DNA of 20,000 nt, taken from the IMG/VR virus record IMGVR_UViG_3300042691_049071; one strand, 5' to 3'. Positions 2,011 through 20,000 of this stretch are shown piece by piece. The stretch's first letter is position 1. Each line of letters begins with the position of its first letter. Position numbers and translations under genes: made by a program. The notes under the pieces are model-generated. The model was given only the letters and a program-made list of their open reading frames with translations. It did no database searches and was not told the origin of the DNA. This DNA is from an uncultured virus (IMG/VR IMGVR_UViG_3300042691_049071) (taxonomy: Duplodnaviria > Heunggongvirae > Uroviricota > Caudoviricetes).

Positions 2011-2063
2011 TTTGATTAATAACGTAGATTTATGGCAATATTGACAGAAGCATTTCAAGAAAG

Positions 2064-3988: not shown

Positions 3989-3998
3989 AGAGAATACT

Positions 3999-4211: not shown

Positions 4212-4279
4212 ATGATCGCCGATCAATGGTCGAAAGTTTTGCTTGAAAACATATAAAACTACCACAAAATTGAATTATC

Positions 4280-4474: not shown

Positions 4475-4707
4475 TGACCCAGTATATACAGACCGAATTC
4501 TGCCTTGATTTAAGGCGAGGTAATACCGAATCACTGCCTACATGGATGAAAAGCGTAGGAGATCGCCCACCAACTCTCCCTTTGAAACCACTCTCAATTC
4601 AATTACCATTATTCGATACCGCGTCCTATGTCTCAAAAGCTTCTACTAAAACCAAAGCCACCAGAGGCGATCGCCATAAACAGGTTGCTATTCCGACCCC
4701 GCAATAG
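4471..4707 (+). CDS. hypothetical protein
   Basis: ATGA-coupled to the previous ORF; overlaps the next ORF by 80 nt. Confidence 0.5.
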   Translation: MMTQYIQTEFCLDLRRGNTESLPTWMKSVGDRPPTLPLKPLSIQLPLFDTASYVSKASTKTKATRGDRHKQVAIPTPQ

Positions 4708-5071
4708 TGAAAGCCCTAACCAGTCCCGCAGATTAATGTCTGACGGGCTGGTTGCCCACTATCCAGTAAACGTCGAGGCGGATCTGGTGATTGCTGAGTG
4801 CATCTCCGAGATACTTCAGGAGCACCAGTCTTGCTTGGGTAAGGGCATCGATCACTTCGCGATCGCTATTTACTGGGGCAACAAGATTCGTATTGAGGCA
4901 AAACCTCTTGAGCGACTACGTTGGCTTCAGGACTCCAACTGGAGAACTGATTTCTGGAAGACGTTAGGCGATCGGGCGGAGAGCTACAACCCCACCACCC
5001 ATCTCAATATCGGATATATCTCTGGAGATGGGTTGGGATGCACAAAATTACAGGCGATCATGGAGGTGTAA
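4628..5071 (+). CDS. hypothetical protein
   Basis: 147-aa ORF; TAATG coupling to the next gene. Confidence 0.65.
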   Translation: MSQKLLLKPKPPEAIAINRLLFRPRNSESPNQSRRLMSDGLVAHYPVNVEADLVIAECISEILQEHQSCLGKGIDHFAIAIYWGNKIRIEAKPLERLRWLQDSNWRTDFWKTLGDRAESYNPTTHLNIGYISGDGLGCTKLQAIMEV

Positions 5072-5271
5072 TGGAGACGATTGAACAGATTTGCTTTAAT
5101 TGCAAGTATCTAGGATCTCAGCCCGTTACCGACACTTGGTTAAGAGTTGGAGACACTGACTACTGGTGCGACAACGAGGACGTTATTGAAGTACCTCAGA
5201 CCTTAGACCCCGATCTGATGGAGCACTACCCAGACACGTGCAAAAAATTTGAAGCGATCGTGGAGGCTTAG
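5071..5271 (+). CDS. small Cys-containing hypothetical protein (CFNC...C...C)
   Basis: GGAGGT RBS before ATG 5071. Confidence 0.7.
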   Translation: METIEQICFNCKYLGSQPVTDTWLRVGDTDYWCDNEDVIEVPQTLDPDLMEHYPDTCKKFEAIVEA

Positions 5272-5894
5272 TGGGAGTTCTAGCAGATTGGCAAATCAAG
5301 TATTTGTGCAGAGACAATTCTTGGCAGATCCCTCGTCTCACCAAGCAGGACTTCTTGCACCCTAGCAGAATAAACACCATATTCAAGATGTGGTTTTGGA
5401 AAAATTTCTTGCCCATACCAGAAGTCCCTTTGGTAACGCCTTATATTCCAGAGAATGTGGGGTGCTCAAGCTTAGATATTTTTATCGGAGACACGATCAA
5501 GAAGTCTACGCCTAACGGCTGGATTGATATCGATCTCAGTCAGGGGCAGAAATATGCGCTGCACTATGGCGAGTTCGTTCTAACTTCTGGGGTCGAAATA
5601 TGCAATTTCCCCCGATGGATTGCCGCCTCAATCGACCTCAGATCCAGTTCTGCGAGATTGGGGTGTCAACACTTAAAGGCGGGGCACTGCGAACCAGGTT
5701 GGCACGATTCGGTTCCAACACTGGAATTGATATGCGTTGACAAAAACCAGCCTTTTATTCTTGAAAAAGGCATGCGCGTATGTCAAATGATTTTTCAAAC
5801 AATGGATGCGGAACCACTGGTTTCGTATGCCGAACATGGTCACTACAACGGCGATCGCACAGTACAGGAAGCTAAGCCAGATGCTACAAGATAA
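5271..5894 (+). CDS. dcd: dCTP deaminase (dUTPase-like trimeric family)
   Basis: N-terminal 'VLADWQI', S.DI.IG, EFVL...E, RSSSARLG, G..EPGW, TLEL, G.RVCQMIF, Y..HGHY; GGAGG RBS before GTG. Confidence 0.9.
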   Translation: MGVLADWQIKYLCRDNSWQIPRLTKQDFLHPSRINTIFKMWFWKNFLPIPEVPLVTPYIPENVGCSSLDIFIGDTIKKSTPNGWIDIDLSQGQKYALHYGEFVLTSGVEICNFPRWIAASIDLRSSSARLGCQHLKAGHCEPGWHDSVPTLELICVDKNQPFILEKGMRVCQMIFQTMDAEPLVSYAEHGHYNGDRTVQEAKPDATR

Positions 5895-6102
5895 AGTCAC
5901 CTTAGACAGCATTGTTGAAGAGTTAGAGAATGTTAGTACCAGAATAACCAGTGCTCCGCTTGTAGGTTACGACGAGACTGGGTCTTTGAGGTACATAACA
6001 GCTTGGGATATCCACACAGTTGAAGAGGGTGAGGAGGATTTTCTTCCTTTTATTACTTCTGCCCGACTGGTTTTTAGATTTGGAGATATAGCCGATGTCT
6101 GA
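5881..6102 (+). CDS. hypothetical protein
   Basis: ATG 5881 overlaps the dcd end; operon packing. Confidence 0.6.
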   Translation: MLQDKVTLDSIVEELENVSTRITSAPLVGYDETGSLRYITAWDIHTVEEGEEDFLPFITSARLVFRFGDIADV

Positions 6103-6490
6103 ATCCCACGTTAATTATTCAATCCCTGAGCCACCCCCGATCGCCACCGATGAACCCGCAATCATCGACCTAGCAATCGAGGATATCGAAACCTATGGTG
6201 GTGAATTTAAAATACTTATTCCCCACCTGCGCGATCGCCTAGCTATGGGTATAGATAAACATGGCACTCCCCTCCAGAAGTCCAACGGGCGAAATCACAG
6301 GATTGATGGATTTCAAGAGCTTGAAGATTTTATTGCTTACATGAAGCAAGGTCTTGAGCGAGGAGACGAGGAGATGAGGTGGTTTTACTACCAAGGACTC
6401 ATCCTTGCTTCCGACTTTGCCGAACTCTTAGAGGGCAAGCAATTTAACTACAACGTCAAAAAGAAAACCATACTAAGACCAAACGAATAG
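6095..6490 (+). CDS. phage protein, possibly an all-alpha (MazG-like) nucleotide pyrophosphohydrolase
   Basis: Motif R...G..KHGTPL...NGR....DG.QELED...Y; located in the nucleotide-metabolism cluster. Function is inferred. Confidence 0.45.
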   Translation: MSESHVNYSIPEPPPIATDEPAIIDLAIEDIETYGGEFKILIPHLRDRLAMGIDKHGTPLQKSNGRNHRIDGFQELEDFIAYMKQGLERGDEEMRWFYYQGLILASDFAELLEGKQFNYNVKKKTILRPNE

Positions 6491-6499
6491 GAACTAGTG

Positions 6500-6868
6500 A
6501 TGACCACAAGAAAAAAGACCGCGATCGCGCAACAAGTCGATTCCAGCACAAGCGTAACCACTTCGGAAGTGGTTGATTTTGCCTTGATTGCCGAAGCGAT
6601 CGCCTTTAAAACCCACGATGCTATACGAAACTCAAGATCTGCTGATTCTCTATATGCGGAGAAGGCTTCCGAAGTGGCGATCGGTGATTTAGTCGCGAAC
6701 ATTTCCGATCTAACCGTGGGTGCTAGCTGTCTAGATAGCGTCGGCACGGTACTGGAGATTCGGGATGGCGAAATCGAAGTTCGTCGTATAGACGGAGTTA
6801 CTCGATATGTGCTTCCCGCGATCGGTACTTATGTTGCGGCAAAGGGAGGTAAGGATGTTTCAGTATGA
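6500..6868 (+). CDS. hypothetical protein with C-terminal SH3/KOW-like beta region
   Basis: 'IGDLV...VGTVLEIRDGEIEVRRIDG'. Confidence 0.6.
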   Translation: MTTRKKTAIAQQVDSSTSVTTSEVVDFALIAEAIAFKTHDAIRNSRSADSLYAEKASEVAIGDLVANISDLTVGASCLDSVGTVLEIRDGEIEVRRIDGVTRYVLPAIGTYVAAKGGKDVSV

Positions 6869-7709
6869 AGCAACAATTGTTGCCGACAGCCTAAATCCGT
6901 GGGGGACGAGGCTGACCTCCTTTGTTCTTACCTATCCACGGTTTATACATGCAGAAATGTTGCGGCACAGAGTCTTTTCTCGCTGTGTATCAAGTTCACG
7001 GGCTATTCCGATCGCCAAGATGATCAAAGCTGTCGAAGAAGCCGATCTGTATCCAGTCTTTTGGGGTGCAGCGCAAAAAGGCATGGCAGCTGACTATGAG
7101 ATTAAAGAGGAAGACAAATGGTACGCGATCGCTATATGGGACGAGCACAGAAAAGCGACTATAAAAGCGGTTAAAAAGCTCTCTGATGTAGGTCTACACA
7201 AGCAAATCCCTAACAGACTGCTAGAGCCTTTTGCACCAGTAACTGAACTAGTCACGGCAACCGAATATCAAAATTTCTTTGAGCTTCGAGATCACCCTAC
7301 GGCTCAGCCAGAAATTCAGGCGATCGCCAAGCTAATGCGTAAAGCATATACGGAATGCAAACCCAAAGAGTGTGAGCTAGGTCAATGGCACATCCCGTTC
7401 ATAGACCCAGAAAAAGACAAGGATCTAGATCCCAAAATTGTACTTAAGGTAGCGGTGGGTCGATGCGCTAGGGTGAGTTATCTAACTCATGATGGAGTTA
7501 GAGATCCGCAGGAGGATGTGAGACTGTGCGATCGCTTATGGAATAGCAAGCCAAAACACCTATCTCCGTTTGAGCACGTAGCAAGAGTCGCTCCTTGGAA
7601 AACTAAGAGCGACAACTTTGATGAGTGGGCTAGCCTACGCTATGAACTAAGGGTTGGCGCACTTAAGTTTGAAGATGGGAAAATCATGGAGGGTCGCCAT
7701 GTTAAGTGA
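6855..7709 (+). CDS. thyX: FAD-dependent thymidylate synthase
   Basis: Signature RHRVFSRCVSSSRAIP (RHRx7SxR), LLEPF, NFFELR....AQPEIQ, CARVSY, HLSPFEH; GGAGG RBS before ATG 6855. Confidence 0.93.
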   Translation: MFQYEATIVADSLNPWGTRLTSFVLTYPRFIHAEMLRHRVFSRCVSSSRAIPIAKMIKAVEEADLYPVFWGAAQKGMAADYEIKEEDKWYAIAIWDEHRKATIKAVKKLSDVGLHKQIPNRLLEPFAPVTELVTATEYQNFFELRDHPTAQPEIQAIAKLMRKAYTECKPKECELGQWHIPFIDPEKDKDLDPKIVLKVAVGRCARVSYLTHDGVRDPQEDVRLCDRLWNSKPKHLSPFEHVARVAPWKTKSDNFDEWASLRYELRVGALKFEDGKIMEGRHVK

Positions 7710-8139
7710 CGAACAGATTAAGGCGATCGCGCAAGCTCGGTACGAGAAGGATAGAGATCTCTCATGGGATAGTCTGTTAACCGAAGAACAAGACTCAGCA
7801 AAAGAGGATGTCCTCTTTATTACTCGTAGAGCGATCGCTATCCAAGCCGAACAAGACCGCCGCAGCTTTACCGCCGTCGCGAAGTATATCGGCGTTAGCT
7901 TTACCTCTGAGACCGATGTGGTTTCCGAGGTCTACAGAAAACTCGATGAAATTATGACCGTGTTTAGAGAGCATAGTCAAGAGATTGCGATCGCGCAGCA
8001 AATTAAAACCTTGAACAATCTACTGGAGAAGTATGGCAAGCAACAAGAAGCCGCGCCTGTTTACGAAGGGGCAGTGGGTACAAAAGAGGGAAGATCCGTT
8101 CGTGCTGGAGTCGTCTCCGACCAAGAACCTCAAGCCTGA
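7699..8139 (+). CDS. hypothetical coiled/helical protein
   Basis: GGAGG RBS before ATG 7699. Confidence 0.65.
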   Translation: MLSDEQIKAIAQARYEKDRDLSWDSLLTEEQDSAKEDVLFITRRAIAIQAEQDRRSFTAVAKYIGVSFTSETDVVSEVYRKLDEIMTVFREHSQEIAIAQQIKTLNNLLEKYGKQQEAAPVYEGAVGTKEGRSVRAGVVSDQEPQA

Positions 8140-8341
8140 GAGTTCGAGGAAAGGAGAATCCCGCTATGGCATTGTTATTTCGTCAACAGAAAGCAACAAA
8201 ATTAACACAAAAGTACGGATTTTGTTTTTCCCGCAAGGTAAAATAGAAGAGGTCGCAAAGAGTCGGTTAGACTTTGCGATCGCCCCTACCGATATCAACA
8301 GCGCTAGCCCTAAATTTTTAGAGAATTTCACAATCCTATGA
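8033..8341 (+). CDS. hypothetical SH3/KOW-like protein
   Basis: 'FTKGQWVQK...RYGIVIS...VRILF'; GGAG RBS; ATGA overlap with nrdJ. Confidence 0.6.
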   Translation: MASNKKPRLFTKGQWVQKREDPFVLESSPTKNLKPESSRKGESRYGIVISSTESNKINTKVRILFFPQGKIEEVAKSRLDFAIAPTDINSASPKFLENFTIL

Positions 8342-11058
8342 CAGAATTTCCTTCAGGCGTTCTTGGTAACGTCGTCGCTTCGCGTACCTATTTCCGTCGT
8401 TTAGCTTCAGGATTACTTGAGGGCTGGAAAGATGTATGCGATCGCACTATTCCCGCGATCGCTATCCTTGGCAAGTTTACAGATGAAGAAAAAGCTCTCG
8501 TCTATGACATGCAGATCCAGCTAAAGACTCTCACTAGTGGTCGATGGCTATGGGTGGGTGGTACTGAGTGGGTACTTAATCCTCGCAACTACTTTGGCTC
8601 CTATAACTGCTCTGGACAGGGGCTTTGCGACTGGGAAGCTTTTGCCACTGTAATGAATTTAGCGATGATGGGCTGCGGCACAGGCGTAAATCTTGAAGAG
8701 AAATATATTTCTCAACTACCTGTTATTCGCAACAGGCTAAAAGTTTCGATTGTTGGCGAGATTGGCGGAGTCCGCAAAGGCGATCGCAAGGAAAATACAG
8801 CAATTGAATTTGATTACTGCGATATCAATCCACGCGCTGTAATCACAATCGGAGACTCTCGAAAAGGATGGGCAGATGCTTATAAAGCTTTGCTCGAAAT
8901 TGGCTCTAATGATGTACTGCTAAAGCCTGCTAATTTCGACGTTGAGGTTGTAGTCTCCAATGTCCGACCCGCAGGCGAGCCACTCAAGAGCTTCGGCGGT
9001 ACTGCTAACCCTGCCAAACTACCCGAAATGTTTGTGCGCGTAGCCAAAATTCTGAACAAGGCTGTTGGGCGAAAGCTCAATTCTCTTGAGTGTTGTTTGA
9101 TTGTTGATGAGGCTGCGATCGTAGTCGTAGCGGGAAATATCAGGAGAAGTTCAGGAATTCGTCAGTTTGCTGAAGATGACGAGCTGGGTGCAACAGCTAA
9201 AGACAACCTCTGGATTCAAGATGGTGCTGGCAATTGGAGTATCGATCCCGATCGCGATGCTCTTAGGATGGCAAATCACTCGCGGGTATACCATCACAAG
9301 CCAGCACTTGAAGAAGTACTAGCCTCAGTAACCAAGCAACATGGTTCTGGCGAAGGTGCAATTCAGTATGCTCCAGAGGCGATCGCACGAGGCAATGCCG
9401 ATCTGCTAGACACGGGCGAGAAGCGTAGAGAGTTTATCCGTCTTTACGAAGAGGATTACCTCAATGGAGTAAAGGTGTTTACTGAGGCGAGAGCGGCTCA
9501 GTATCTTGGATCTCTAAGTCTAGAAAAATATGGATACGATCTTTTTGACGTAGAGGCTTATGCTCAAGAGCTAGAACATCGCCTATCCCGTTATCAACTC
9601 AATCCGTTAATCCTAGCGGCATAAGCGAGCGATCGCCTATGAAAACCCGAATCACGGGGGAAGTCCTAAAGCTGGATAATCCCGTACCGCCACTCGAAGA
9701 AGCGGTCGAACGACTGACAAGGGAGGCTCTCAGAGTCTGTGATACAGTCTGAACTGCACGAATAGCCGATAAAGGTGCAGACTTAAGCAGAAATGGCTTA
9801 AGCACGTCATACAGACGGGTAACAGGTTGGTGGAGAAATAGTTGGAGCCGAATTTATGTGTAATTTGGCTGAAATTCATCTAAATCAAATTGATCCTTAC
9901 GATTTTGCAGACCAAGAACGGGCATTTAAGGCTGGAGCTTTATCAGTAGCTGCATTGCTTAACCATGATTTTTCTGCGTTAGGCGATCGCTACCAAAAGT
10001 CCCGCGAATTCGATCCGATTGTGGCTGTCTGCCCGACGGGTATTTTCGATTTCTTCGTAAAAGCCTTCGGTGTGGACTGGTTGAAGTGGTGGGAAGCTGG
10101 TCGCCCTGCGGAGTGGGGCGATGACTATGTGTGGACTCCATTGGGAGAGACGTTTAGTCAGTCGATCGCCGATATCATGCCAGCATCGCAGTACTTCACT
10201 CTGCGCGAAAAAGAGTATCTGACTTACTGGCGACAAATTGTCGAGCGAACAGTTAAAGATTATTGCGATCGCCACGACCTTAAAACTCCTAACAGAACTA
10301 CTGCGGGGCAACCTTCGGGGTCGAAATCCTTACTGACAGGCGCTTCCCCTGGTTATCACCCACCCAAAGCTGCATACATGATTCGCCGCATCACAGTGAG
10401 GAAAAACCATCCCGTAGCGTTTGCCGCGATCGCATTGGGCTACACTGTAGTACCCAGTCAGTCAGACAAAGACGAGAATGGAGTTCTGCTCAACGACCCG
10501 TTCGACCCTAGAGTGACTGAATGGCTGATCGAAATTCCGATGAAGACCATTTGGGCAGATCTAGATGGCGCAGACCAAATCGACATCTCGAAGTTTAGCG
10601 CAGTCTCTCAATTCAATTTCATGATGCAAGTGCAAAAATACTATGTAACCCATAATCTTTCTAGCACTTTGGAGCTGCGCGAAAGCGAGATTGAGCCTCT
10701 AGCCAAGTGTATCTACGACGCAATCCAAAATGATGATGGCTATATAAGCTCAGCTATTCTTGCTCGCTATGACGACGTACAAACTTATCCCCGCCTACCC
10801 TTTGAGCCAATCGATCGCGCAAAGTATCAAGAACTTGAACAGGCGATCGCTGAACGTAAAGCTCAAAAACAAGTAGCTCTCGCGTTCAGACTCAAAGAAG
10901 CAGGCATCGACACCTACGACTTTAACAGCCTCTACAAGTTCTACGACCAAGGCGACGCACTCTCTCCTGAGACCGCGGCTTGTGACACGGGCTTGTGCGA
11001 GATGAAAGAGACGCTCGAACAAATCAAATCAGACTCTTTAACTGTGGAGATCCTATGA
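8338..11058 (+). CDS. nrdJ: class II adenosylcobalamin-dependent ribonucleotide reductase; join(8338..9607,9830..11058), 832 aa after splicing
   Basis: SGRWLWVGGT, YNC, MMGCGTG, VVAGNIRRS, GQPSGSKSLL and a C-terminal CDTGLC pair. Removing 9608-9829 restores the catalytic LNP-C-GEIVGAEFMCNLAE motif in frame. Confidence 0.95.
9608..9829 (+). ncRNA. group I self-splicing intron, 222 nt, no internal ORF
   Basis: 5' exon ends in U (9607) and the intron ends in G (9829). P1 CCGU|UA-aucc-UAGCGG has a U.G pair at the splice site. P4 ACGGG/CCCGU, P6 ACCGC/GCGGU, P7 GACUG(9712-16)/CAGUC(9745-49), P8 AGGCUC/GAGUCU, P9 CUGCAC/GUGCAG, and further hairpins CUUAAGC/GCUUAAG and CGUC/GACG. P3 pairing is short (CCC/GGG). 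Confidence 0.93.
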
Positions 11059-11324
11059 GATTAGCTAGACTGCAAAAAATCTTTGAGGAATTGCAGGTAG
11101 CTCAGAATGGGCAAGGAGTATTTGGCGGTACAACGCCTTACTCCTTGCTTATTGAGGAGATGCTAAAAGATTCCGACTCGGACTTTTGTTTAGTGATCGC
11201 CGAAAAAGCCATCAATATTGGTCGCAAGAAAGATGGGCTACGCGATCGCCCCGAACCAGTTGAGCAGACTACCCCTGTAAAGCGAGGCAGGAAGCCTAAA
11301 GTTCAGGAGGTAGTTAATGGCTAA
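11055..11324 (+). CDS. hypothetical protein with basic C-terminal 'KRGRKPK' motif
   Basis: ATGA overlap with the nrdJ stop; GGAG RBS. Confidence 0.7.
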   Translation: MRLARLQKIFEELQVAQNGQGVFGGTTPYSLLIEEMLKDSDSDFCLVIAEKAINIGRKKDGLRDRPEPVEQTTPVKRGRKPKVQEVVNG

Positions 11325-11541
11325 AAACGAATTACCCCACCTATATCTAGGTAATTTTAGCGCCACTCCTATTACACATAGCGTTTACTTGTCCTGCGAT
11401 CGCTGCAATGTCAGTTGGACTGGATGCTGGGACGCGATGGAGTGTCTTTACTGCGGAAGAGACTGCCTTCACGGGATCGATCATCCTGATAATCCAGAAG
11501 GCTTAAGCTCTAGACCTCTGGAGGTGGTAGTTAATGGCTAA
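11309..11541 (+). repeat. 16-bp perfect direct repeat GGTAGTTAATGGCTAA (11309-11324 and 11526-11541) at two consecutive gene junctions
   Basis: Read directly from the sequence. Confidence 0.9.
11317..11541 (+). CDS. small Cys-rich (CxxC...CxxC) putative zinc-binding protein
   Basis: CDRC...CLYCGRDC; GGAGG RBS. Confidence 0.7.
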   Translation: MAKNELPHLYLGNFSATPITHSVYLSCDRCNVSWTGCWDAMECLYCGRDCLHGIDHPDNPEGLSSRPLEVVVNG

Positions 11542-12007
11542 GCGATCGCCAAAACTAACTCCCCCACCTCTATCCGATGAAGAGTTGAGGGACTACGCGA
11601 TCGCCAAGTATATCGGGAACTTGCTTAAAGCGGAGAACGAGTCAATTGTTTTTCGCTTGCAAGGCTCGGTAGTACCCAAGGCGCGACCTAGAGTAACCAA
11701 TTCGGGACACGCCTATATGCCGCAAAACTACCGAGAGTGGAAACAGCAAGCGATCGCTGCCTTTCGGGATATTCGGTATCGCTGCCCCGCATACACGTTT
11801 CCTCTCGCTCAAGCCAATATCTTCTTGGTGTTTGATGGCAAACATGACAGGGGAAAGGATGGCGACAATTCGGGAGGTTCTTGCAATGATGCTTTAGTAC
11901 AAGCAGGTATACTCCAAGATGACAACTTTCTGCATGTGCCAGAACAGACTATGATGTTGAACTACGATGCTAAGCGATCGCCAAGCACATTAATTGTTTT
12001 GTATTGA
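11534..12007 (+). CDS. rusA: RusA-family Holliday junction resolvase
   Basis: G.VVPKARPRV..GHAYMP..Y..WK; acidic catalytic motifs DGDN...DAL...GIL.DD. Confidence 0.85.
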   Translation: MAKRSPKLTPPPLSDEELRDYAIAKYIGNLLKAENESIVFRLQGSVVPKARPRVTNSGHAYMPQNYREWKQQAIAAFRDIRYRCPAYTFPLAQANIFLVFDGKHDRGKDGDNSGGSCNDALVQAGILQDDNFLHVPEQTMMLNYDAKRSPSTLIVLY

Positions 12008-12011
12008 CACT

Positions 12012-12368
12012 ATGGCTGTAAACGTAAAAATCCTTCCAAGAGACATTCTGTACCCGCCCGAACTAGAGGGGTGTGGCTTTGATGTTACTGCTGCGGATGT
12101 AGGAATTTGCGGTGATAACGCCTATTGCCGTCTCCGACATTCTAAAATGAAAGCTGTTGAGGCATTATTCAGGGCGATCGAAAGCCAGCAAAACTGTTCC
12201 GCGATATCGAGTGTCAATTTTGGTAGCCACTTTGCCGCTTCCTATAATGCAGACGGATCTATAACCTTAATGCCAAGGACGGTGATCATCGCAGGTGAAG
12301 AATTCCTTGAATCCCATATAGAGATCAACTACAGCTACCCGATCGCAATTATTAATCCTATTGACTAA
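12012..12368 (+). CDS. hypothetical protein
   Basis: ATG 12012, 4 nt after the rusA stop. Confidence 0.65.
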   Translation: MAVNVKILPRDILYPPELEGCGFDVTAADVGICGDNAYCRLRHSKMKAVEALFRAIESQQNCSAISSVNFGSHFAASYNADGSITLMPRTVIIAGEEFLESHIEINYSYPIAIINPID

Positions 12369-12391
12369 CTAACGCGCTTTTGTGGTAGTAT
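12361..12391 (+). promoter_or_regulatory. putative sigma70-type promoter for the ssb pair
   Basis: TTGACT at 12361-66 and extended -10 TG-G-TAGTAT at 12383-91 (spacer 19 nt, long), in one of the few intergenic gaps. Confidence 0.45.
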
Positions 12392-12456
12392 TATTTTCTA
12401 ACAGGCGATCGCTACAGTAATCGCAAACAACTTTTATTTGGCTGGCACACAATATC

Positions 12457-12852
12457 ATGACAAATTCATTCGCTCTCACTCCGACCAAGCTGGTGTCGGT
12501 AGTGCCTAGCGGTACTACGGCAACAGGCATTGTAGCCTTCCGAGACTATAAGGGCGACGTTCATCACCTAGACTTTGAAGCCTATGGGGAAACCGCCAAG
12601 AAGCTTCAAGATATAAAGATTGGCAGCAAATTTGACGCTGAAGGTAATCTCGATATCTATAAAGAGAGAAATTACCTGACAGTATTCAATATTTCCTCAA
12701 TTTCTGGTGTTAAGAACCCAGATCCCGAAGAGGTTGCTCAAACCACTCCAGAGCCAACACCTGTTGCAGCGATCGCACCCAAAACCACTAAGTCGGCAGC
12801 ACCTCAACCCCCTGCCAGCAATGATTTTGACGAAGATTCTATACCGTTCTAG
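12457..12852 (+). CDS. SSB-like OB-fold protein with Pro/Ala/Thr linker and acidic SSB-Ct tail
   Basis: 'FEAYGETAKKL...GSKFDAEGNL' is OB-fold-like; C-terminus DFDEDSIPF. Confidence 0.75.
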   Translation: MTNSFALTPTKLVSVVPSGTTATGIVAFRDYKGDVHHLDFEAYGETAKKLQDIKIGSKFDAEGNLDIYKERNYLTVFNISSISGVKNPDPEEVAQTTPEPTPVAAIAPKTTKSAAPQPPASNDFDEDSIPF

Positions 12853-12861
12853 GAAACAGAC

Positions 12862-13209
12862 ATGATTAACAAGTTAAATATTGTAGGCAGACTAGGGAGT
12901 GACCCTGAACTGTCTTATTTTGAGGGCGGCAAGGTAGTAGCTAAGTTCTCCGTAGCCGTAAACAGGACTAAAACCGAAACCAATTGGTTTAACGTTGAGG
13001 TATGGGGCAAGCAAGCAGAAACAGCCAAAACATACCTAACAAGAGGTTCCTTGGTAGGCATTACTGGGCGACTGGGCTTTAGCGAGTGGAACGACAGAGA
13101 GACTGGTGAACTTCGCCGCAAGCACGTAGTTACTGCTGATAATTATAGGGGGTTAACCTTGCTCGGCTCTAAAAAACAGGATAGTGGCTACAGTGATGAT
13201 GACTGGTAG
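12862..13209 (+). CDS. ssb: single-stranded DNA-binding protein (short cyanobacterial type)
   Basis: INK..IVGRLG.DPEL.YFE.G..VAKFSVAVNR...T.WF.VEVWGKQAE...YL.RGSLVGITGRL. Confidence 0.95.
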   Translation: MINKLNIVGRLGSDPELSYFEGGKVVAKFSVAVNRTKTETNWFNVEVWGKQAETAKTYLTRGSLVGITGRLGFSEWNDRETGELRRKHVVTADNYRGLTLLGSKKQDSGYSDDDW

Positions 13210-13378
13210 TCCATGCGATCGCTGTCGATACAACAGCGATCGCTACTGCAAGATTCTTAACGTGGCGATCGCTGAATATCCTCCCTGCCATTACTGGTAT
13301 TACAAGTCCCCTCGTAGCAGAGGTATAGAATTAAAGCTAACAACAATCGAGGATCTGGCTAATGCACAACTCTTATGA
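13199..13378 (+). CDS. small Cys-rich hypothetical protein
   Basis: CDRC...C...C; overlaps the ssb stop. Confidence 0.55.
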   Translation: MTGSPCDRCRYNSDRYCKILNVAIAEYPPCHYWYYKSPRSRGIELKLTTIEDLANAQLL

Positions 13379-13395
13379 AAGCTGGAGAGACTTAA

Positions 13396-14274
13396 GTGAA
13401 TAGGATTATTTGGAAAGGCGATCGCTTTGAATGCAGCAGTTCAGAACTAGAGGACGCAAAATGGCAAGCCTTAACTTCTAGCGATTTAAGACTAAGGGAT
13501 TTTATGGCTTACTGCGATTTGCGTCTCGACGACTTTATATGCCACGCCGATCACAATATCACAGTTCTTAAGCTTAAGGAGGACCTGTCCTTCGCTGAAC
13601 TCCCGATCACCAAAGAAGGCACAGGCTTCAACACTTGCTTTCACTTAGGAGCTTATGCGATCGCGTCAATGAATCTCGGCCAAAAGCTTGAGATATGTGC
13701 CTACTCGTTTAAGCCCTTACTGCATCCAGTGCTGTTTCAAGGGTTGAGCAAATGGTTTGGTGATCGACCCGCTCAGGAGGTTGATAAGAACTGCTCTTAC
13801 TACAGTGGTGATTTAACCTTAAAATGCGCTGTTAATCCATCCTTACCTTGCAAAGACTGTAGCGATGTGTCTGCGAGGTTTAACGAGAACCTATTCGTTT
13901 GGAGGGCTACAGATTTAAACGATTACCTCAATCACGACTTGATGAAACACCTTGAAGAAATAGCCATGCGAGGGAGCGGTTTTAACCAAACGAGACAGGC
14001 TTTTGCTTCGGTACAAGAGTCAATGCGATCGCGGGTGGTAGAGATTCCTCGCATGACTATAGGTATAGATGAAGGTTCTGGGCAGGATGCTACCGCGATC
14101 GCCACGGGGTTCACTACTCCACCGCCCAGATTTGAGGAAGAACGTCAACGGTATACGGAGGAGAGGAGGCAGGCGAGAATTTGGTCTCAATTTGGCGGAG
14201 TAGTGGTATATCCTCAGCCCCATAGAATGCCAATCCCCCAAGAGCTTTACGGAATAATAAACGAAACAGAATAA
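13396..14274 (+). CDS. hypothetical protein with a cyanobacterial DUF6464-like Cys motif
   Basis: CSYYSGDLTLKCAVNPSLPCKDC; GGAG RBS before GTG. Confidence 0.6.
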   Translation: MNRIIWKGDRFECSSSELEDAKWQALTSSDLRLRDFMAYCDLRLDDFICHADHNITVLKLKEDLSFAELPITKEGTGFNTCFHLGAYAIASMNLGQKLEICAYSFKPLLHPVLFQGLSKWFGDRPAQEVDKNCSYYSGDLTLKCAVNPSLPCKDCSDVSARFNENLFVWRATDLNDYLNHDLMKHLEEIAMRGSGFNQTRQAFASVQESMRSRVVEIPRMTIGIDEGSGQDATAIATGFTTPPPRFEEERQRYTEERRQARIWSQFGGVVVYPQPHRMPIPQELYGIINETE

Positions 14275-14276
14275 CT

Positions 14277-14639
14277 ATGGGTACATGGACTGCACTTGTA
14301 TTTAACGCGGTAATCAAAGATGACTCAGTTGCTAGTGACTGGTTCTTGCTTGAGTTGGATTATAAGTTAGGGCAATTTCGCGATCGCCGAAGCTGTTATT
14401 TTCCTGCGGTAAAGCATTACGCCGTATTTAAGCAGGAACCTACTGAGTATTACGAGGTTGAAAATACCGTATCAATCTGCTGCTCGATCAAAAACTATGA
14501 CAACCAAATCGAGGATTTCTTAGATTGGATCAATCCTCATCTTGCGGAATGGCAAAAGCCAATTCAGTGTCTTGGCTATAAGCAGATCATGAACGACGAG
14601 AAGTTGCCCGAATTTATTTTTCGGAGGGCGTATGACTAG
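14277..14639 (+). CDS. phage hypothetical protein
   Basis: MG.WT.L.F...; SIKNYDNQIEDFLDWI.P motif; tight packing. Confidence 0.7.
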   Translation: MGTWTALVFNAVIKDDSVASDWFLLELDYKLGQFRDRRSCYFPAVKHYAVFKQEPTEYYEVENTVSICCSIKNYDNQIEDFLDWINPHLAEWQKPIQCLGYKQIMNDEKLPEFIFRRAYD

Positions 14640-14865
14640 AGAAGATGCCGAAGAGTGCCTATCTAAAGGCTTAAAAGTCGTCACCCGATACGGCTTAGGC
14701 GAAGTTATGTCACTATCAAAGAAAAGTGACTCGATTCAATGGGCGAAGATAAAGCAGCTTGACCCTGATCGCCAGTTTGAAGCACCCAGATGTCTATACT
14801 TGTCGAGCATCAGCAGATATACTGCTACTTCTGTTGAGCAAGAACGGGTAGACAGTAATTTTTAA
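14632..14865 (+). CDS. hypothetical SH3-like protein, last gene of the + operon
   Basis: GGAGG RBS; stop overlaps the terL stop (TTAA). Confidence 0.65.
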   Translation: MTREDAEECLSKGLKVVTRYGLGEVMSLSKKSDSIQWAKIKQLDPDRQFEAPRCLYLSSISRYTATSVEQERVDSNF

Positions 14866-16490
14866 TATCCAGTCCGCCACAAAGTATCCATCAGTGTCTC
14901 TCTACCAGCAAACGCAATTACACAAGCATCACTACAATTAGGCGATCGCCCCAATCTCGGAATAGTCTTAGAAGCCTTATCCTCGATGCGAAGTTTCGCG
15001 TTGGGGGTTTCTTCGTAATAGACGTTACTGAAGTCGGTCATGATATATTCTTCTTCTTCTAGTGGTGCGATCGCTGATATATCGTCATTACCATCAGCAG
15101 CCGCAAAGAACTCACGCAACTTCCAATACCATTGAGCCTTCCAGTTCATGTACAACTGATCGAAGTCTTGGTTAGCATCTTCTTCAACTGCATCACCAAA
15201 ATTAGCTGCCCATACCTGCGCTCCCCATCCGCGATCAAGCAAGTAGGCTAATGTGCCCGAACCAACACCCGTAGCATCTATGCCGACTTTGCAGTTTGGA
15301 TAGACGCGCAGATATTCTTCCTCAATGATTTGGGCAATACGAATAACATCTTTGCGATCGCCTACACAGGGGATAACTCTCGCGACCTTAAGTACATTAC
15401 CTTGGAACCCACAAATAGCATGGTCGTCACTCATGGAGCCAACATCTACACCAAAACTCCAAGGTGTATTGACATTGATGATCGTTTCCCATAGATCGGG
15501 GTTGAGATCGTACCTTGCTCGTGCCGCCAAGAAGTATGACTGGGGAAGAATAGCACTGCCTGAGTCTTCAGGAAATAAGCCTTCGACACGGCTTACCCAG
15601 TAAGGCGATCGCTCGCCCTTCTTTGATCGGATCTTCTCAATCCATTCAACAGACACCGCCCCTTCAACAACGTCTCGCGGTAGATCCTCTGACCACAATT
15701 TCTGTGGTTTTACGGGGCTTCGTTTGTATTGGGGGTCATCGCGATCGCGTAGTATCTTCTCGGCAATATCGGGCTTGAGTCGGTGTATACCATCTGGATG
15801 CAACTCATAGAAATCGACCACATTCGGGTGAGACCATACGGGAATTCTAATGTGACCCATTTTACAGGCAGCATCAAAAGCTGTTCCTGAAGATACTGGG
15901 TTTCCAACCCTGATAATCTTGTTGGTGTCGGAACCTGTTAGGCAGGATGCAGCCCCATCATCAATCTGAGAGGATATACCGTTAGCCTCATCAAAGACAA
16001 TGAGAAGCTTCTTTGAGTGAACGCCTTGAAAGGTATTGGCATCATAATTACTAGTACTAAATCCTTCCCCAAAACAGTCATTGTCTAGAAATAGCCTAAC
16101 CGAAGTTCTCCTACCCCCGATGATCTTCTTGTTGCGATCGTAGTTGCTGCGTATATACCTCCAGAGCAGCATCTCGACTTGTCGATAGGTTGGAGCAGTA
16201 GTAAGTGCAACACCCCCAAGACATTTAACAAAATGAATAACTATCCAAGCAAGTAGCCAAGTCTTTCCAACCCCGTGCGCTGCCTGTACGTTGGTTTCCT
16301 GTTCTTCAATATACGATCGCAGTATCTCTCTTTGGTCTTGGGACAGCATTCCGTTCGGCTGCATATACATAATCAGCCCTTCGGGGTCGTCGGCAAACCT
16401 TGTAAGATCTTCGCCTAAGTCTAGAAACTGATCTCCCCCGATCGCCTTAACCTGCGCGTTACAACTCTTCTTCAGTGTCGCTAAGCCCAC
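14862..16490 (-). CDS. terL: terminase large subunit
   Basis: Walker A AHGVGKT, TAPT..Q, Walker B LIVFDEA, GNP coupling motif, RV.G.FP, nuclease motifs GVDVG / IDATGVG / SPN.SDA. Confidence 0.93.
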   Translation of the reverse strand: MGLATLKKSCNAQVKAIGGDQFLDLGEDLTRFADDPEGLIMYMQPNGMLSQDQREILRSYIEEQETNVQAAHGVGKTWLLAWIVIHFVKCLGGVALTTAPTYRQVEMLLWRYIRSNYDRNKKIIGGRRTSVRLFLDNDCFGEGFSTSNYDANTFQGVHSKKLLIVFDEANGISSQIDDGAASCLTGSDTNKIIRVGNPVSSGTAFDAACKMGHIRIPVWSHPNVVDFYELHPDGIHRLKPDIAEKILRDRDDPQYKRSPVKPQKLWSEDLPRDVVEGAVSVEWIEKIRSKKGERSPYWVSRVEGLFPEDSGSAILPQSYFLAARARYDLNPDLWETIINVNTPWSFGVDVGSMSDDHAICGFQGNVLKVARVIPCVGDRKDVIRIAQIIEEEYLRVYPNCKVGIDATGVGSGTLAYLLDRGWGAQVWAANFGDAVEEDANQDFDQLYMNWKAQWYWKLREFFAAADGNDDISAIAPLEEEEYIMTDFSNVYYEETPNAKLRIEDKASKTIPRLGRSPNCSDACVIAFAGRETLMDTLWRTGY

Positions 16491-17055
16491 CGCTTAATAC
16501 CTCCCTGATAGTTGTCTGAGCTTGATCGGCGATCGCCATAATCGTCTCGGCTTTAGACTGCGGCAGTATACCTTCGTTAGCCATCTGAGTCGCCAGCACA
16601 TCGATAGTTGTCCGAGGTATTGCTGGCATAATCATCTCGATAATCTTGGGAGGGCAGCGCAGGATAACCTCGTTAGTGGTCTCTACTTCGTCAATGCAAT
16701 CTAAAACTAATTCATCGGGCTTTTTCTTGTTTGGTACATACCGAGTTCTCTTAGTTCGAGAGGTTGTAACCCTTGGAGATTTATGGCAAGTTAAGTAATC
16801 TTCTACGCAAGCCTTGGCTAAATTTATAAAATAATCAGGTTGCGATCGCCTGTAGTCCGCCAAAGCGACATTAATTTCCTCAGAAAATTCAGGGAACTCA
16901 ATTTGCCACGAATCGTAAGTGTGTTTAGTAATGATTCTGGGTAATTGTTCGTACACGGATTCAGCCGAACCAGTTCTCCTGATTCGGTCTTTCACCTCCT
17001 TTAGTAAAGACGGAGATAGATCTGCTCTGCTTTTAGGTCTACCTTTCTTAGCCAT
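16459..17055 (-). CDS. terS: probable terminase small subunit
   Basis: Directly upstream of and overlapping terL; MAKKGRP start and 'TYDSW..EFPEFSE.I..A' HTH-like pattern typical of TerS. Confidence 0.65.
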   Translation of the reverse strand: MAKKGRPKSRADLSPSLLKEVKDRIRRTGSAESVYEQLPRIITKHTYDSWQIEFPEFSEEINVALADYRRSQPDYFINLAKACVEDYLTCHKSPRVTTSRTKRTRYVPNKKKPDELVLDCIDEVETTNEVILRCPPKIIEMIMPAIPRTTIDVLATQMANEGILPQSKAETIMAIADQAQTTIREVLSGGLSDTEEEL

Positions 17056-17086
17056 GTATCGACGAAAGCATGTCCTAACGCAGATT

Positions 17087-17320
17087 CTAGCCGATTTCGT
17101 GGTAATAGCGATCGCATAACACCACATTATCAAAAGAAAATGGAATTAACTCTCCATCATCAAAACGAATCCATAATCTCTCACAAGCGATCGCCACTGT
17201 TTCTACGGTTGCCTCAAGCCCATATTTGCCGTTGCCAGGGTATAGGCAGATTACGCGATCGCCTTCTTGGGGAGTATATCTGCCGAGGCGTTTTAGAATT
17301 GTCTTTAGCTTGTATATCAT
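17087..17320 (-). CDS. small SH3/KOW-like hypothetical protein (start 17320 or upstream)
   Basis: 'EGDRVICL.PG...GLEATVE.V...LWIRFDDGE'. Confidence 0.6.
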   Translation of the reverse strand: MIYKLKTILKRLGRYTPQEGDRVICLYPGNGKYGLEATVETVAIACERLWIRFDDGELIPFSFDNVVLCDRYYHEIG

Positions 17321-17331
17321 ATTTTGCTTAT

Positions 17332-17377
17332 TATTAACGGCAAGCTTGTTAGGCGATCGCATATTAACGACAAACTT
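17332..17377. repeat. imperfect 16-bp direct repeat TATTAACG(G/A)CAA(G/A)CTT, 30-bp period, flanking a HIP1 site
   Basis: 17332-17347 versus 17362-17377, 14/16 identical. Confidence 0.7.
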
Positions 17378-17381
17378 CAAG

Positions 17382-17723
17382 CTATAGACTCTCAAAAGTT
17401 ACGGCTTGATTGGCGAACATCCTGATCTGCTGAATCAACATCATTTTATTTTCAGGGTTTGATTCCGCTTCTAGCTGATCGCGTAGATTTAAAATCCACT
17501 CAATAATCTTGACTGTGGACTCTTTTGTTGGATTGTCAAACAGTCCTATAGTTTGCGCGATCGTCGCATTAAGGATTTCGCCCCACTCAAGACAATCAAT
17601 ACTTTGCGCTAAAGTCAAGCTAAATTTGTTAACCGCTTCGTGCTTAGCTTTTCTATCCTCGGTTGTGGGCGGATGATATTTAAACCAATCACTCAACGGG
17701 ATGCCTAGATATAGTGTTTCCAT
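17382..17723 (-). CDS. Acb2/Tad1-like helical hairpin protein (candidate anti-defence nucleotide sponge)
   Basis: WFKYHPP...K.HE..N...L.LA..I at the N-terminus and L..IRMFANQAV at the C-terminus match my recollection of this family; strong RBS GAGGAGG. Confidence 0.6.
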   Translation of the reverse strand: METLYLGIPLSDWFKYHPPTTEDRKAKHEAVNKFSLTLAQSIDCLEWGEILNATIAQTIGLFDNPTKESTVKIIEWILNLRDQLEAESNPENKMMLIQQIRMFANQAVTFESL

Positions 17724-17904
17724 AATCCTCCTCAGATGCTTGATAAAGATTAAAAACCACCAGTTAAACCTTCAAGCACTGCCTTCGACAATATACGCGG
17801 TGCGTGTATCTCTGGCTTAGCTATTGATTCAACTGATGTTTTTGCGAATGGTGTTTTGAGCGCCAAGTAATTAGTTTTGAAAGAACAATTACTAATAAAC
17901 TTTT

Positions 17905-18385
17905 ATACAATCGCGCTTAGGACAAGGAGGATCTGACTTTCAATCTTTCGATTAGGCTGAAGGATTATAAGGGACTATCCACTCCCTAGACCTTTGGGCT
18001 TGCACCAACACTTGATCTGCTCTAAGCGCGATCGCATAGTAGATAGATTTCTCTATCCGCACTTTCTCTGGACAAGAAAGTAGTAGAGTAATCAACCGCC
18101 AGCACCATGTCTGGCATTTGCCGACACAGGGGCTTAAAGGTGCTTGTGTGTTACCACGGTTGATTGAGTGCGATCGCTGCCTCTGATATCTTTGGGCTTC
18201 ATATCCCCATCGACTTGCGAATCGCTGCATACTAAGGTCGTTATCCCACGAAGTAATGTTTCAACCGCGCCGCTCAGTTGCGTTAGTTGTGATCGCATAG
18301 CTATTACCCTAATCCGCAAGTACAGAAGTCCTTTTCGGGACCCCCTCTCACGGGGTAGTAGTGAACTACCGTACTAAGCGATCGC
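17905..18385 (-). ncRNA. candidate large structured ncRNA of unknown class (~480 nt, may extend to ~17735)
   Basis: Dense nested inverted repeats, several closed by GNRA tetraloops on the - strand; own extended -10 promoter; no convincing ORF. Confidence 0.6.
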
Positions 18386-18391
18386 AATGCA

Positions 18392-18410
18392 ATTCTAACA
18401 CAATATTGTG
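18392..18410 (-). promoter_or_regulatory. extended -10 promoter (TG-T-TAGAAT, 18400-18392) overlapped by a perfect 12-bp palindrome CACAATATTGTG (18399-18410)
   Basis: Read directly; lies just downstream of the stop of the 18426-19037 gene and points into the structured region. Confidence 0.55.
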
Positions 18411-18425
18411 GGATTCCGATCCGAA

Positions 18426-19037
18426 CTAATTGACCTGTTTTACAATTTTCTTGCACTGAAACTTACAATCCAGCCAGTATGGGTGTTCTCCTGTTGGCCA
18501 AAGACTGCCACGCTCGCTCTTAGCTCCTTCTGTCTGCAAATCTATCTTCAGTAGATTGTTGGAGCTTATATTGGTAATCGTTGCCCTGACTGGCTCCACG
18601 AATAATTGAGGGTAGTAGCTATCGTAATCAATGATAACTTCGTCACCGATCGCCAATAGATTTGACAAAACAATCCAGCCACCAAGATTTAGCCGCTCGA
18701 CTGTTTCGCCTTCTTTTAATAAATTCTCGTACATTTGATCTCCGTAATATTGTAAAAGCCCAACCAATACCTTTAGAAGCGCCAACCAAATCCTTTGATC
18801 TGTTTGGATTTCGAGGAACTTGTTTGCCGCAATCCATGCGGATGAAGCAGGAAACTCTTCCCACTTTTCTTCATACAACTCAAGCCAAACAGCTAGGTTT
18901 AAAAGCTCTATTAAGCGATGTAGTTCATCTCTATCTAGGCAGGCGATCGCATCGGCAACTTCCTTGGGTATCTCAATCCCGAATCTACGCATAGTAGAGT
19001 CTATACATTTGGATCTCCAAATCTGCTCGGTAAACAT
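18426..19037 (-). CDS. hypothetical protein
   Basis: GGAGG RBS before ATG 19037 (MFTEQIW), 4 nt after the ParB-like stop. Confidence 0.65.
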   Translation of the reverse strand: MFTEQIWRSKCIDSTMRRFGIEIPKEVADAIACLDRDELHRLIELLNLAVWLELYEEKWEEFPASSAWIAANKFLEIQTDQRIWLALLKVLVGLLQYYGDQMYENLLKEGETVERLNLGGWIVLSNLLAIGDEVIIDYDSYYPQLFVEPVRATITNISSNNLLKIDLQTEGAKSERGSLWPTGEHPYWLDCKFQCKKIVKQVN

Positions 19038-19041
19038 AGCT

Positions 19042-19686
19042 TTAGCCTCCATAATAATCAGCACATAAATACTCAAGCGATCGCCCCATCTTGACGGAAT
19101 AATTTTCGCCCTCGATATTAGCCTCCTGCATTACCTTTTCCAGCGCTGCCCTCACGATCTCCACAGCGTCCGTAGGAACACTAAAGATCATTCGAGTGAA
19201 TTCGTCACTGGCTTCGGGAGGAGCCTTCTCTTTGGCAAGTTCTAACATCTTGGAGATATCTTCTTTTGTATAGGGGATGGGCTGAAAGGTGCGATCGCCT
19301 AACGCTGCTTCAATATCTCTAAGCGACTTACTTAGCTTAACTGGTTCATGCTCGCCATATCCGTGCGAGGCATGCGTTAATAACTGGCATTCTTCATCCG
19401 TTAGTCCTGTAATAACGTGGCATAGCAAATATTCGAGGTTCTCGATATACCGATGCTCACCATCAATGATTTCGTATTCGCCCTCAATAAAAGGGTGAGG
19501 ACGGACAAGTATCTCGGCAACCTGCGTGAACAACTTCATACTCCCTCCAAGTGCTCTTTGGGCTTTGGGGGTTAAAAAATTGGCGTTCCAATTATTCGGG
19601 TGAATTTTTGAGGTTTCAATTCTTACACTGCGCTCAATCTTGATTCGCTGAGCGATCGGCAGCGAATAATCAATCTTCTTCGTCAT
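19042..19686 (-). CDS. ParB/Srx N-terminal domain protein
   Basis: IHPNNWNAN...ILVRP....YEIIDGEHRY. Confidence 0.8.
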   Translation of the reverse strand: MTKKIDYSLPIAQRIKIERSVRIETSKIHPNNWNANFLTPKAQRALGGSMKLFTQVAEILVRPHPFIEGEYEIIDGEHRYIENLEYLLCHVITGLTDEECQLLTHASHGYGEHEPVKLSKSLRDIEAALGDRTFQPIPYTKEDISKMLELAKEKAPPEASDEFTRMIFSVPTDAVEIVRAALEKVMQEANIEGENYSVKMGRSLEYLCADYYGG

Positions 19687-20000
19687 CTTCTTCCTCTTGA
19701 AATTTCTTGGGCATAATCACTGATGTCAAAAAAGACTCCTGCTCCACTCCGTCGCATGGGCTAACCATTACCAATGGTCGAGTCCCCTCGTATACCTCCA
19801 GCTTAACGTGTTTTGAGTTTGTGGTATCCAAGATATGCTGCAAGTATTTTATGTTGAACCGAGCAGCAAATCCTGACACGCCAACATCGCATGGCAGCGA
19901 TTCTTCCACTCTGCCCACACCCGCAACTTCGGCAACAAGTATCAGTTCATCACCCTTGATAGTAATGTCAACCAAATAGCTGGTAATTTCGCCTTCGCAT
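19670..20000 (-). CDS. dnaN: DNA polymerase III beta sliding clamp-like protein, C-terminal part (5'-truncated by the window)
   Basis: 'G.VEE.LPC...F.ARFN.KYL..IL.....V.L.....RPLV......L..VIMP' matches the clamp C-terminal domain; frame stays open to the window edge. Confidence 0.75.
   Translation of the reverse strand, partial: CEGEITSYLVDITIKGDELILVAEVAGVGRVEESLPCDVGVSGFAARFNIKYLQHILDTTNSKHVKLEVYEGTRPLVMVSPCDGVEQESFLTSVIMPKKFQEEEDDEED

Follow-up and report, generated by a model that had tools for sequence, protein, structure and literature searches.

A folded, non-coding RNA ahead of the terminase genes of an uncultured, probably cyanobacterial phage: a candidate operon leader

We found that a 702-nt gap between two minus-strand genes of an uncultured virus is non-coding and gives rise to a folded RNA in lake RNA samples. 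The gap lies directly before the terminase genes in a window of 20,000 nt, the whole stretch of DNA that was analysed (IMG/VR record IMGVR_UViG_3300042691_049071). The RNA is about 0.81 kb long, and some 0.65 kb of it is a leader that we regard as real: it is transcribed, it folds and it does not encode a protein. The explanation that we favour, with moderate confidence, is that this RNA is the modular structured leader of the terminase operon, with transcripts that mostly stop early in the manner of the PR'-6S-tR' region of phage lambda. The region belongs to a known kind of phage control region, and a new RNA class is not supported. What is new here is a set of RNA-library contigs, a third lineage with a canonical terminator, tests of the GNRA loops and of the strand, and a negative search for Q antiterminators.

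The window is the minus strand of G000, the source virus record, which has 43,022 bases, is classed as linear and is estimated to be 32% complete. The HIP1 palindrome GCGATCGC occurs 66 times in the window, whereas 0.2 copies are expected. Among the TerL matches listed (120 of 125), all seven homologs that carry an organism name are cyanobacterial (Symploca, Nostoc, Desmonostoc, Leptolyngbya and two unclassified). The HIP1 excess and these names together indicate a cyanobacterial host. Among cultured phages there is no close relative, the best TerL identity being about 26%. The minus-strand genes run from the partition module past the gap to TerL (Table 1), and the plus-strand genes at 1-14865, a replication and nucleotide-metabolism module, converge on TerL.

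The original prediction held that the gap has no convincing gene and could not match its RNA to GOLLD, ROOL, RNase P, tmRNA or group I/II introns, and both points stand. Minus-strand ORFs end at 18426 with the 216-aa protein and resume at the ATG at 17723 with the 113-aa gene, and no conserved or family-bearing ORF lies in the gap (17724-18425). The only sizeable ORF there encodes 92 aa (17952-18230). Compared with L004, a diverged homolog described below, its substitutions are spread 6/6/5 over codon positions 1/2/3 and a 5-nt indel falls inside it, in a conserved block; moreover, the sense strand of the L004 leader is never open for more than 45 codons. Codon-pattern conservation of a small ORF, which the original prediction had named as evidence against an RNA, is thus absent. 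Rfam covariance models, including those for GOLLD, ROOL, RNase P, tmRNA, group I/II introns, self-cleaving ribozymes and 6S, gave no match at gathering scores in the whole window, and ARAGORN found no tRNA or tmRNA gene. With E-values of up to 10 allowed, 17600-18550 gave two chance hits, at 14.6 and 11.6 bits against cut-offs of 47.9 and 50.

Table 1. Features of the gap and its surroundings, in minus-strand order, with the RNA contigs
Feature	Position	Strand	Remarks
ParA, FtsK-like protein, peptidase, sliding clamp		-	first in minus-strand gene order
ParB-like protein	19042-19686	-	
216-aa protein	18426-19076	-	last ORF before the gap
Conserved element upstream of the -10	18414..18430	-	TAGTT..GATCGGAA in the window
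Extended -10 promoter (predicted) TGTGTTAGAAT	18392..18402	-	TAGAAT at 18397-18392; predicted start about 18385
TGTTAGAAT, as named in the original prediction	18400-18392	-	
RNA as covered by contigs	17543..18371	- (from indirect evidence)	809-824 nt in 3 runs
X15 RNA contig	17543-18366		0 differences from window
X16 RNA contig	17558-18371		0 differences from window
X17 RNA contig	17557-18365		0 differences from window
X18 RNA contigs	17798-18366 and, separately, 17580-17825		0 differences from window
5' domain	18180..18371	-	lineage-specific, HIP1-bounded; hairpins GGUAG/CUACC, CCCC/GGGG, GUCC/GGAC
AGUAC/GUACU	18375-71 / 18323-19	-	
Conserved core	18036..18168	-	9-bp-stem domain with GUAA loop, then two hairpins
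9-bp stem AAUCAACCG/CGGUUGAUU	18165-57 / 18098-90	-	in conserved core
Hairpin ACUUUCU/AGAAAGU	18081-61	-	in conserved core
Hairpin GAUAGA-GAAA-UCUAUC	18057-42	-	in conserved core
Lineage-specific domain	17904..18038	-	17-bp closing stem; GCAA and GAAA loops
11-bp stem AUCGCGCUUAG/CUAAGCGCGAU	18032-22 / 17920-10	-	lengthened to 17 pairs by RNAfold
Conserved hairpin UUAGUAAUUG..CUAAUUACU	17866..17893	-	12 pairs, one A-U to G-U, 0 broken
Long irregular terminator-like hairpin	17743..17844	-	5' A-run pairs 3' U-run; then GUUUUUAAUCUUUAU
Hairpin named in the original prediction	17778-37	-	
RBS GAGGAGG and ATG of first operon gene	17721..17733	-	
113-aa gene, first of terminase operon	17382..17723	-	ATG 17723
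102-aa gene, then 224-aa TerS-like gene	after 113-aa gene	-	
TerL	14862-16490	-	phrog_2, E 6.6e-28

The predicted transcript is present in the RNA libraries of four studies. The evidence consists of assembled contigs from four RNA runs, which we compared with the window over 16000-19999. Three runs hold the RNA as one contig each, and in the fourth it is split into pieces of 569 nt and 246 nt. More broadly, 14 DNA runs from seven studies contain 99-100% of the words sampled from 17300-18700; for six RNA runs the share is 43-69%. The contig ends on the promoter side agree within 7 nt across the four studies and those on the far side within 16 nt across three, and apart from one adapter they leave no unexplained loose ends. 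Strand, exact ends and local depth are not readable from assembled contigs, and the agreeing stops are a weak hint of real RNA ends. The 5' ends lie 21-26 nt after TGTGTTAGAAT and 14-20 nt past the transcription start that the -10 element predicts.

One contig, X15, runs directly after 18366 into 24 nt of Illumina adapter, which suggests that many fragments end exactly there. This adapter seems to be of the read-1 read-through type. If it is, and if the library was dUTP-stranded, the transcript comes from the minus strand. At the other end, three of the RNA contigs extend 165-180 nt into the 113-aa ORF. The RNA thus reaches into the first ORF of the terminase operon, and in this it acts like the leader of an operon, not like an independent gene. 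No contig covers 16000-17260 or 18372-19163, and small low-depth pieces lie at 17261-17491 (X15) and 19164-19314 (X16). Contig holes prove nothing about the silence of a gene. Silent flanking genes are what a leader model predicts, and we do not count the holes as evidence for it.

What drives this transcription? The original prediction pointed to a minus-strand extended -10 promoter, and this element is kept in three lineages. The 11-mer TGTGTTAGAAT is identical in the window type, in L004 and in L036, while its flanks differ among them. It is present at 25 of 87 loci, none of them outside these lineages; each record has one good match, and the window has a single match at up to one mismatch. 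As called from the sequence, the promoter precedes the first TerS/TerL operon gene by 0.67 kb. It lacks a good -35 hexamer, and we saw by eye no second promoter-like start that would explain the 18366 end. Upstream of the -10 is a further conserved element, which reads TAATT..GATCTGAA in both L004 and L036 and may be a factor-binding site.

Every motif listed in the original prediction was found where it had been placed, and the idea of a multi-domain RNA holds in part: the RNA is transcribed, folded and non-coding, but two of its domains are lineage-specific and it appears to be an operon leader instead. The 5' multiloop domain (18375-18180) cannot be aligned to L004. The conserved core is 84% identical there. 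None of its 40 pairs is broken (two are changed on both sides and two on one side), its GNRA loops remain GNRA loops (GUAA becomes GCAA, and GAAA becomes GUAA), and its z-score is -3.80, with as good a fold in 1 of 200 shuffles. Any function of this core is putative. In L004 the next domain (17904..18038) gives way to a shorter insert whose closing stem is formed by two mutually paired HIP1 copies. Within the window domain we considered an anti-Shine-Dalgarno sequence, AUCCUCC (about 17932-17926), that could pair with the RBS, and dropped it because the domain is missing from L004. Between lineages two of the four domains can be dispensed with, and several of the stems are closed by HIP1 palindromes; both points weigh against the explanation that we favour.

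The last module, the terminator-like hairpin, ends 10 nt before the RBS and has a predicted energy of -30.0 kcal/mol on the minus strand vs -22.0 on the plus strand; its L004 equivalent reaches -40.9 (z -6.14). A simple terminator scan did not call the irregular hairpin and U-run of either the window or L004. Three of the four RNA runs have contigs that pass through the hairpin and U-run, and X18 alone breaks near it, at 17798-17825. Where the contigs do stop, inside the 113-aa ORF, no minus-strand terminator is predicted.

Folding scores, a check proposed in the original prediction, bear it out in part. The whole 702-nt gap folds more stably than its dinucleotide shuffles, and more so on the minus strand (z -5.20) than on the plus strand (z -2.79; 20 shuffles each), but only the central 300 nt are outlying. 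Among 300-nt windows the sole outlier is 17901-18200 (z -5.22 minus, -2.03 plus), the remaining gap windows scoring between -1.4 and -2.7. The background from 81 minus-strand windows over 1-16300 has a mean of -0.50 and an sd of 1.27, with a minimum of -5.06 in a coding region. Fold scores are inflated here because any two HIP1 copies can pair and the gap has three. The GNRA count gives a cleaner signal. Three of the four tetraloops in the minus-strand MFE fold are GNRA loops, vs none on the plus strand, in agreement with the original assignment of these loops to the promoter strand; 80 shuffles gave a mean of 0.15 and a maximum of 2, with at least three in 0 of 80. From the promoter, the GNRA loops, the substitution pattern and the one adapter junction, we infer that the RNA lies on the minus strand.

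How widely is the leader distributed? Identical copies of the gap are present in three other IMG/VR contigs, and the sole diverged sequence homolog is L004, at about 84% identity. L004 comes from G001, a record of 134,296 bases that is rated 100% complete and has inverted terminal repeats; the leader region is internal to it. The identity of about 84% applies to three blocks of the gap (positions 1-48, 260-398 and 512-702). The two stretches between them, 49-259 and 399-511, are swapped for unrelated sequence, with breakpoints at HIP1 sites, and the 5' multiloop and 11-bp-stem domains are therefore lineage-specific. The ORF-free stretch of L004 is 657 nt long and keeps the conserved core and the 3' hairpin with its U-run.

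In a third lineage, L036, TerL identity is 56% and the ParB-like protein is nearly identical. Its last upstream ORF is immediately followed by TGTGTTAGAAT, then by about 270 nt of unrelated non-coding leader and by a perfect 21-bp intrinsic terminator (z -10.1), in which the U-run is paired with an A-run on the 5' side. Beyond the terminator lie a small gene, then the TerS-like gene and TerL. The order common to the three lineages is a ParB-like gene, the promoter, an ORF-free leader of 270-650 nt, a hairpin with A-run and U-run, one or more small genes, a TerS-like gene and TerL. As judged from these sequences, the promoter, the hairpin with U-run and the place before TerS/TerL seem to be the constant parts, and the leader body appears modular and partly dispensable.

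Beyond these lineages our searches found no further homolog of the leader, although protein homologs turned up for the 113-aa gene product (63-87% identity) and for TerL (51-72%). Neither blastn of the gap nor tblastn of the 113-aa protein matched any of 50,697 phage records, and scans of viral contigs, metagenome and genomes returned only the identical copies, L004 and L036. Of 56 loci retrieved by a scan built on a TerL alignment, none shares sequence with the leader RNA. Against 52 TerL-related loci, blastn of the RNA found nothing with the window query and two 19-nt chance hits with the L004 query. A covariance model (R1), run over 57 sources (476 kb) plus G001 and G002, recovered its two training sequences and one hit at E 0.35. 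Two candidate homologs were rejected: L010 proved to be a chance 18-mer inside a 526-aa ORF, and L012 has the 113-aa gene in an unrelated context, without the leader. A survey of ORF-free gaps at 28 TerL loci was too noisy to use, since spurious ORFs split even the window-type gap.

Covariation, another check put forward with the original prediction, gave no statistical support. It rests on two distinct sequences, the window type and L004. In the RNAalifold consensus of the conserved blocks, 93 of 104 pairs are invariant, none is broken, three are changed on both sides and eight on one side, mostly to G-U. Shuffles match the observed covariation values in 127 of 500 and 255 of 500 trials, and substitutions are no rarer in stems than in loops. 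The pair changes are consistent with a structured minus-strand RNA, but two sequences are too few to give them any statistical weight.

Taken together, the conserved promoter, the U-run hairpin and the location ahead of the terminase genes are laid out as in a late-operon leader such as PR'-6S RNA-tR' of lambda. We propose that the single dedicated extended -10 promoter would give rise to a minus-strand RNA of about 0.81 kb, whose first 645 nt or so (as in the contigs) would form a non-coding string of hairpin modules. The RNA would pass the hairpin and U-run before the RBS and continue briefly into the first ORF of a probable four-gene operon (113 aa, 102 aa, TerS-like and TerL). On this model the promoter would fire, most transcripts would stop or be cut early through termination or attenuation, and the folded leader would accumulate. 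The terminase genes would be made only once a phage-encoded or host signal lets the polymerase read through.

How close is the parallel with lambda? In PMC7547250 the lambdoid PR' promoter is described as always active, with its transcript terminated at tR' in lysogens to give an abundant short RNA. Measured against that account, our region is alike in having a single dedicated promoter directly before the packaging genes, a hairpin with U-run between promoter and first gene, a leader RNA found in RNA samples, and a conserved element beside the -10, where Q-binding sites lie. Unlike the lambdoid leader, the leader here is 3-4 times longer (about 645 vs about 200 nt) and modular. Its contigs also pass the hairpin and stop inside the first ORF, its operon has only four genes and converges on a replication module, its host is cyanobacterial, and no Q-family protein was found. 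For the latter we searched G000 (32% complete), G001 (100%) and G002 (28%) with the Q antiterminator families PF06530 and PF03589, which gave no hits. PF06323 also gave none in these three records, a void test in which the control matched nowhere. The lack of a Q protein, the contigs that pass the hairpin and the 5' ends beyond the predicted start count against a lambda-type filing.

Four other explanations deserve consideration, and two of them concern the nature of the gap itself. A plus-strand antisense transcript, starting at about 17558 and crossing the gap towards 18366, is very unlikely. By eye, TATAGT at 17547-17552 with TTGTTG 16 nt upstream would give a start at about 17559, near the contig ends at 17557 and 17558; the contigs are strandless, and the L004 leader folds equally well on both strands (z -4.61 and -4.23). 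However, the X15 contig begins at a position upstream of this putative start, the promoter scan did not call it, and there is no plus-strand terminator near 18366. The plus strand also has no GNRA loops, and substitutions fit it worse: in a structure predicted from the window alone, 9 of 12 pairs changed in L004 stay paired on the minus strand vs 3 of 7 on the plus strand. The adapter orientation, if of the read-1 read-through type, favours the minus strand as well. Least probable of all we consider a DNA-level site (pac/cos, a replication origin or a ParB centromere) at which transcription would be incidental. The gap does lie between a ParB-like gene and TerS/TerL, has many inverted repeats, including one of 17 bp, and scores below the shuffle mean on the plus strand too. 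Yet the 17-bp repeat and the 5' domain are missing from L004, the complete 134-kb relative carries the gap in its interior, away from the inverted terminal repeats that form its ends, and we noticed by eye no iterated direct repeats of the origin type. A DNA site would also leave the GNRA loops, the G-U-compatible changes and the presence of RNA unexplained.

The other two accept a minus-strand RNA. It is unlikely, though well short of negligible, that the product is a free-standing, stable, trans-acting RNA of 0.6-0.8 kb, its place before the terminase genes being incidental or the RNA being a second use of a leader by-product. Such an RNA would be highly expressed from a plasmid-like cyanobacterial prophage while the packaging genes are off, and it could itself be an RNA factor for immunity or maintenance, or could act on proteins of the host or of defence systems. 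Its conserved core with GNRA loops would be the active part and the HIP1-bounded modules swappable cassettes. A discrete contig of about 810 nt in three studies, the GNRA loops and compensatory changes in the core, and the ParA and ParB-like genes and inverted terminal repeats (of the complete relative), which recall phage-plasmids, all fit. So does StxS, which PMC7547250 presents as a PR' by-product that gained trans functions. Against it, L036 has the promoter and the terminator but lacks the RNA sequence altogether, L004 has other sequence in place of half of the RNA, and the transcript continues into the first ORF. We give still less weight to an ordinary long 5' UTR, with neither a regulated stop nor a separate function, in which the contigs would be the stable folded 5' part of an operon mRNA whose 3' part decays faster. 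The contigs that run unbroken from the leader into the 113-aa ORF, with no stop at the hairpin in three of four runs, agree with a plain UTR, as do the replaceable domains and the failure to find an antiterminator gene in G000, G001 and G002. A plain UTR fits poorly with the canonical terminator between promoter and genes in L036 and the hairpins with U-runs in the other two lineages, and with a conservation of the core and 3' block (84-94%) that equals or exceeds that of the neighbouring coding sequence (84%).

Why would a terminase-operon leader in this host matter? To our knowledge, late-gene control in phages of bloom-forming freshwater cyanobacteria is essentially unknown, and we know of no Rho in cyanobacteria. 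Without Rho, intrinsic stops and folded leaders are likely switches. The region supplies a defined promoter motif and a leader that is detectable in public lake metatranscriptomes of several studies. It also comes in three natural versions, a long one, a long one whose modules are swapped and a short one that has a perfect terminator, which together amount to a ready-made deletion series. A leader that merely reports a resident prophage with packaging off could still serve as a useful in-situ marker of the non-lytic state; one that acts in trans would rank among the largest phage regulatory RNAs known.

GOLLD and ROOL are large structured RNAs that are often carried by phages and are conserved across many genera. 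The original prediction named them, could not match the gap RNA to them and saw in it a possible new class, a view that our findings do not bear out. The gap RNA resembles them in being phage-borne, several hundred nt long and built of many hairpins. Unlike them, it is confined to two close lineages, has no statistically supported covariation and has no Rfam match; homologs occur in one other lineage only, where two domains are replaced. The unrelated 270-nt leader behind the same promoter in L036 weakens the case for a free-standing class further. A second comparison is with the immunity RNAs P4 CI, P1/P7 c4 and N15 CA, which are cut from operon leaders of plasmid-like prophages, are 70-100 nt long and pair with repeated target sites in the same leader. 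Shared features would be an RNA from the leader of the operon that is controlled, premature stops and partition genes on the element; here, unlike there, the operon would be that of the terminase.

Two published sets of RNAs are also relevant. An IMG/VR survey (PMC10690425) reports 14 candidate structured RNAs consistently upstream of a putative large terminase domain, and our leader is at the same kind of location in the same database. The four sample numbers of the related contigs are absent from the part of its supplement that was searched, and our leader may be identical to one of the listed motifs. IsrK of the Gifsy-1 prophage is reported to have a short terminated form and a read-through form (PMC4825925). 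IsrK differs from our leader RNA in being much smaller, enterobacterial and unrelated in sequence.

What kind of element carries the window? Inverted terminal repeats occur in G001, the complete 134-kb relative, and ParA and ParB-like genes lie on the record from which the window comes. HIP1, a palindrome whose copies can pair with each other and thereby raise fold scores, occurs once per 300 nt in the phage window (66 in 20 kb). Taken together, the HIP1 density, the inverted terminal repeats and the ParA/ParB-like genes suggest that the element is a linear plasmid-like prophage. The strongest fold z-score outside the ORF-free gap (-5.06) comes from a 300-nt window directly after the SSB gene that contains three HIP1 copies inside 50 nt.

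Ribonucleotide reductase is encoded in two ORFs separated by a 231-nt spacer. An Rfam search of the window at gathering score, which included this spacer, returned no intron. The gene could simply be split, or it could be interrupted by an intervening sequence that goes unrecognised. The 43-kb record (G000) contains four HNH endonuclease-type ORFs or domains, one of which forms a fusion with a replication-initiator O-like protein. In L036, a third lineage, two ORFs correspond to the window's 216-aa gene, one of 116 aa for the N-terminal part and one of 102 aa for the C-terminal part; an unrelated ORF, also of 102 aa, is inserted between them.

Coordinates of features in the window and related loci
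Feature	Location	Strand	Detail
Ribonucleotide reductase, first ORF	8338-9624	+	phrog_367 profile positions 27-372
Ribonucleotide reductase, second ORF	9856-11058	+	phrog_367 profile positions 399-698
Fold outlier	13001-13300	-	HIP1 at 13215, 13236, 13265
Terminator-like hairpin, T-run	17530-17556	+	within 113-aa gene
HNH endonuclease-type ORFs/domains	G000 C1:4842-5297; C1:11648-11956; C1:12530-12922; L089 2732-4123
Split 216-aa gene counterpart	L036 1630-2565
Inserted 102-aa ORF	L036 1967-2275

The 113-aa gene before the terminase genes (minus strand, 17382-17723) also lies in an unrelated context at another locus (L012), and therefore behaves as a mobile small gene. Its product gives a weak, sub-threshold match to PF24729, the Acb2/Tad1 hairpin domain (E 0.007; score 17 bits, cut-off 27), and precomputed annotation places this domain in two distant homologs. 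The protein may be an anti-defence sponge. The gene also contains a plus-strand terminator-like hairpin followed by a T-run, which coincides with RNA contig ends at 17543-17558.
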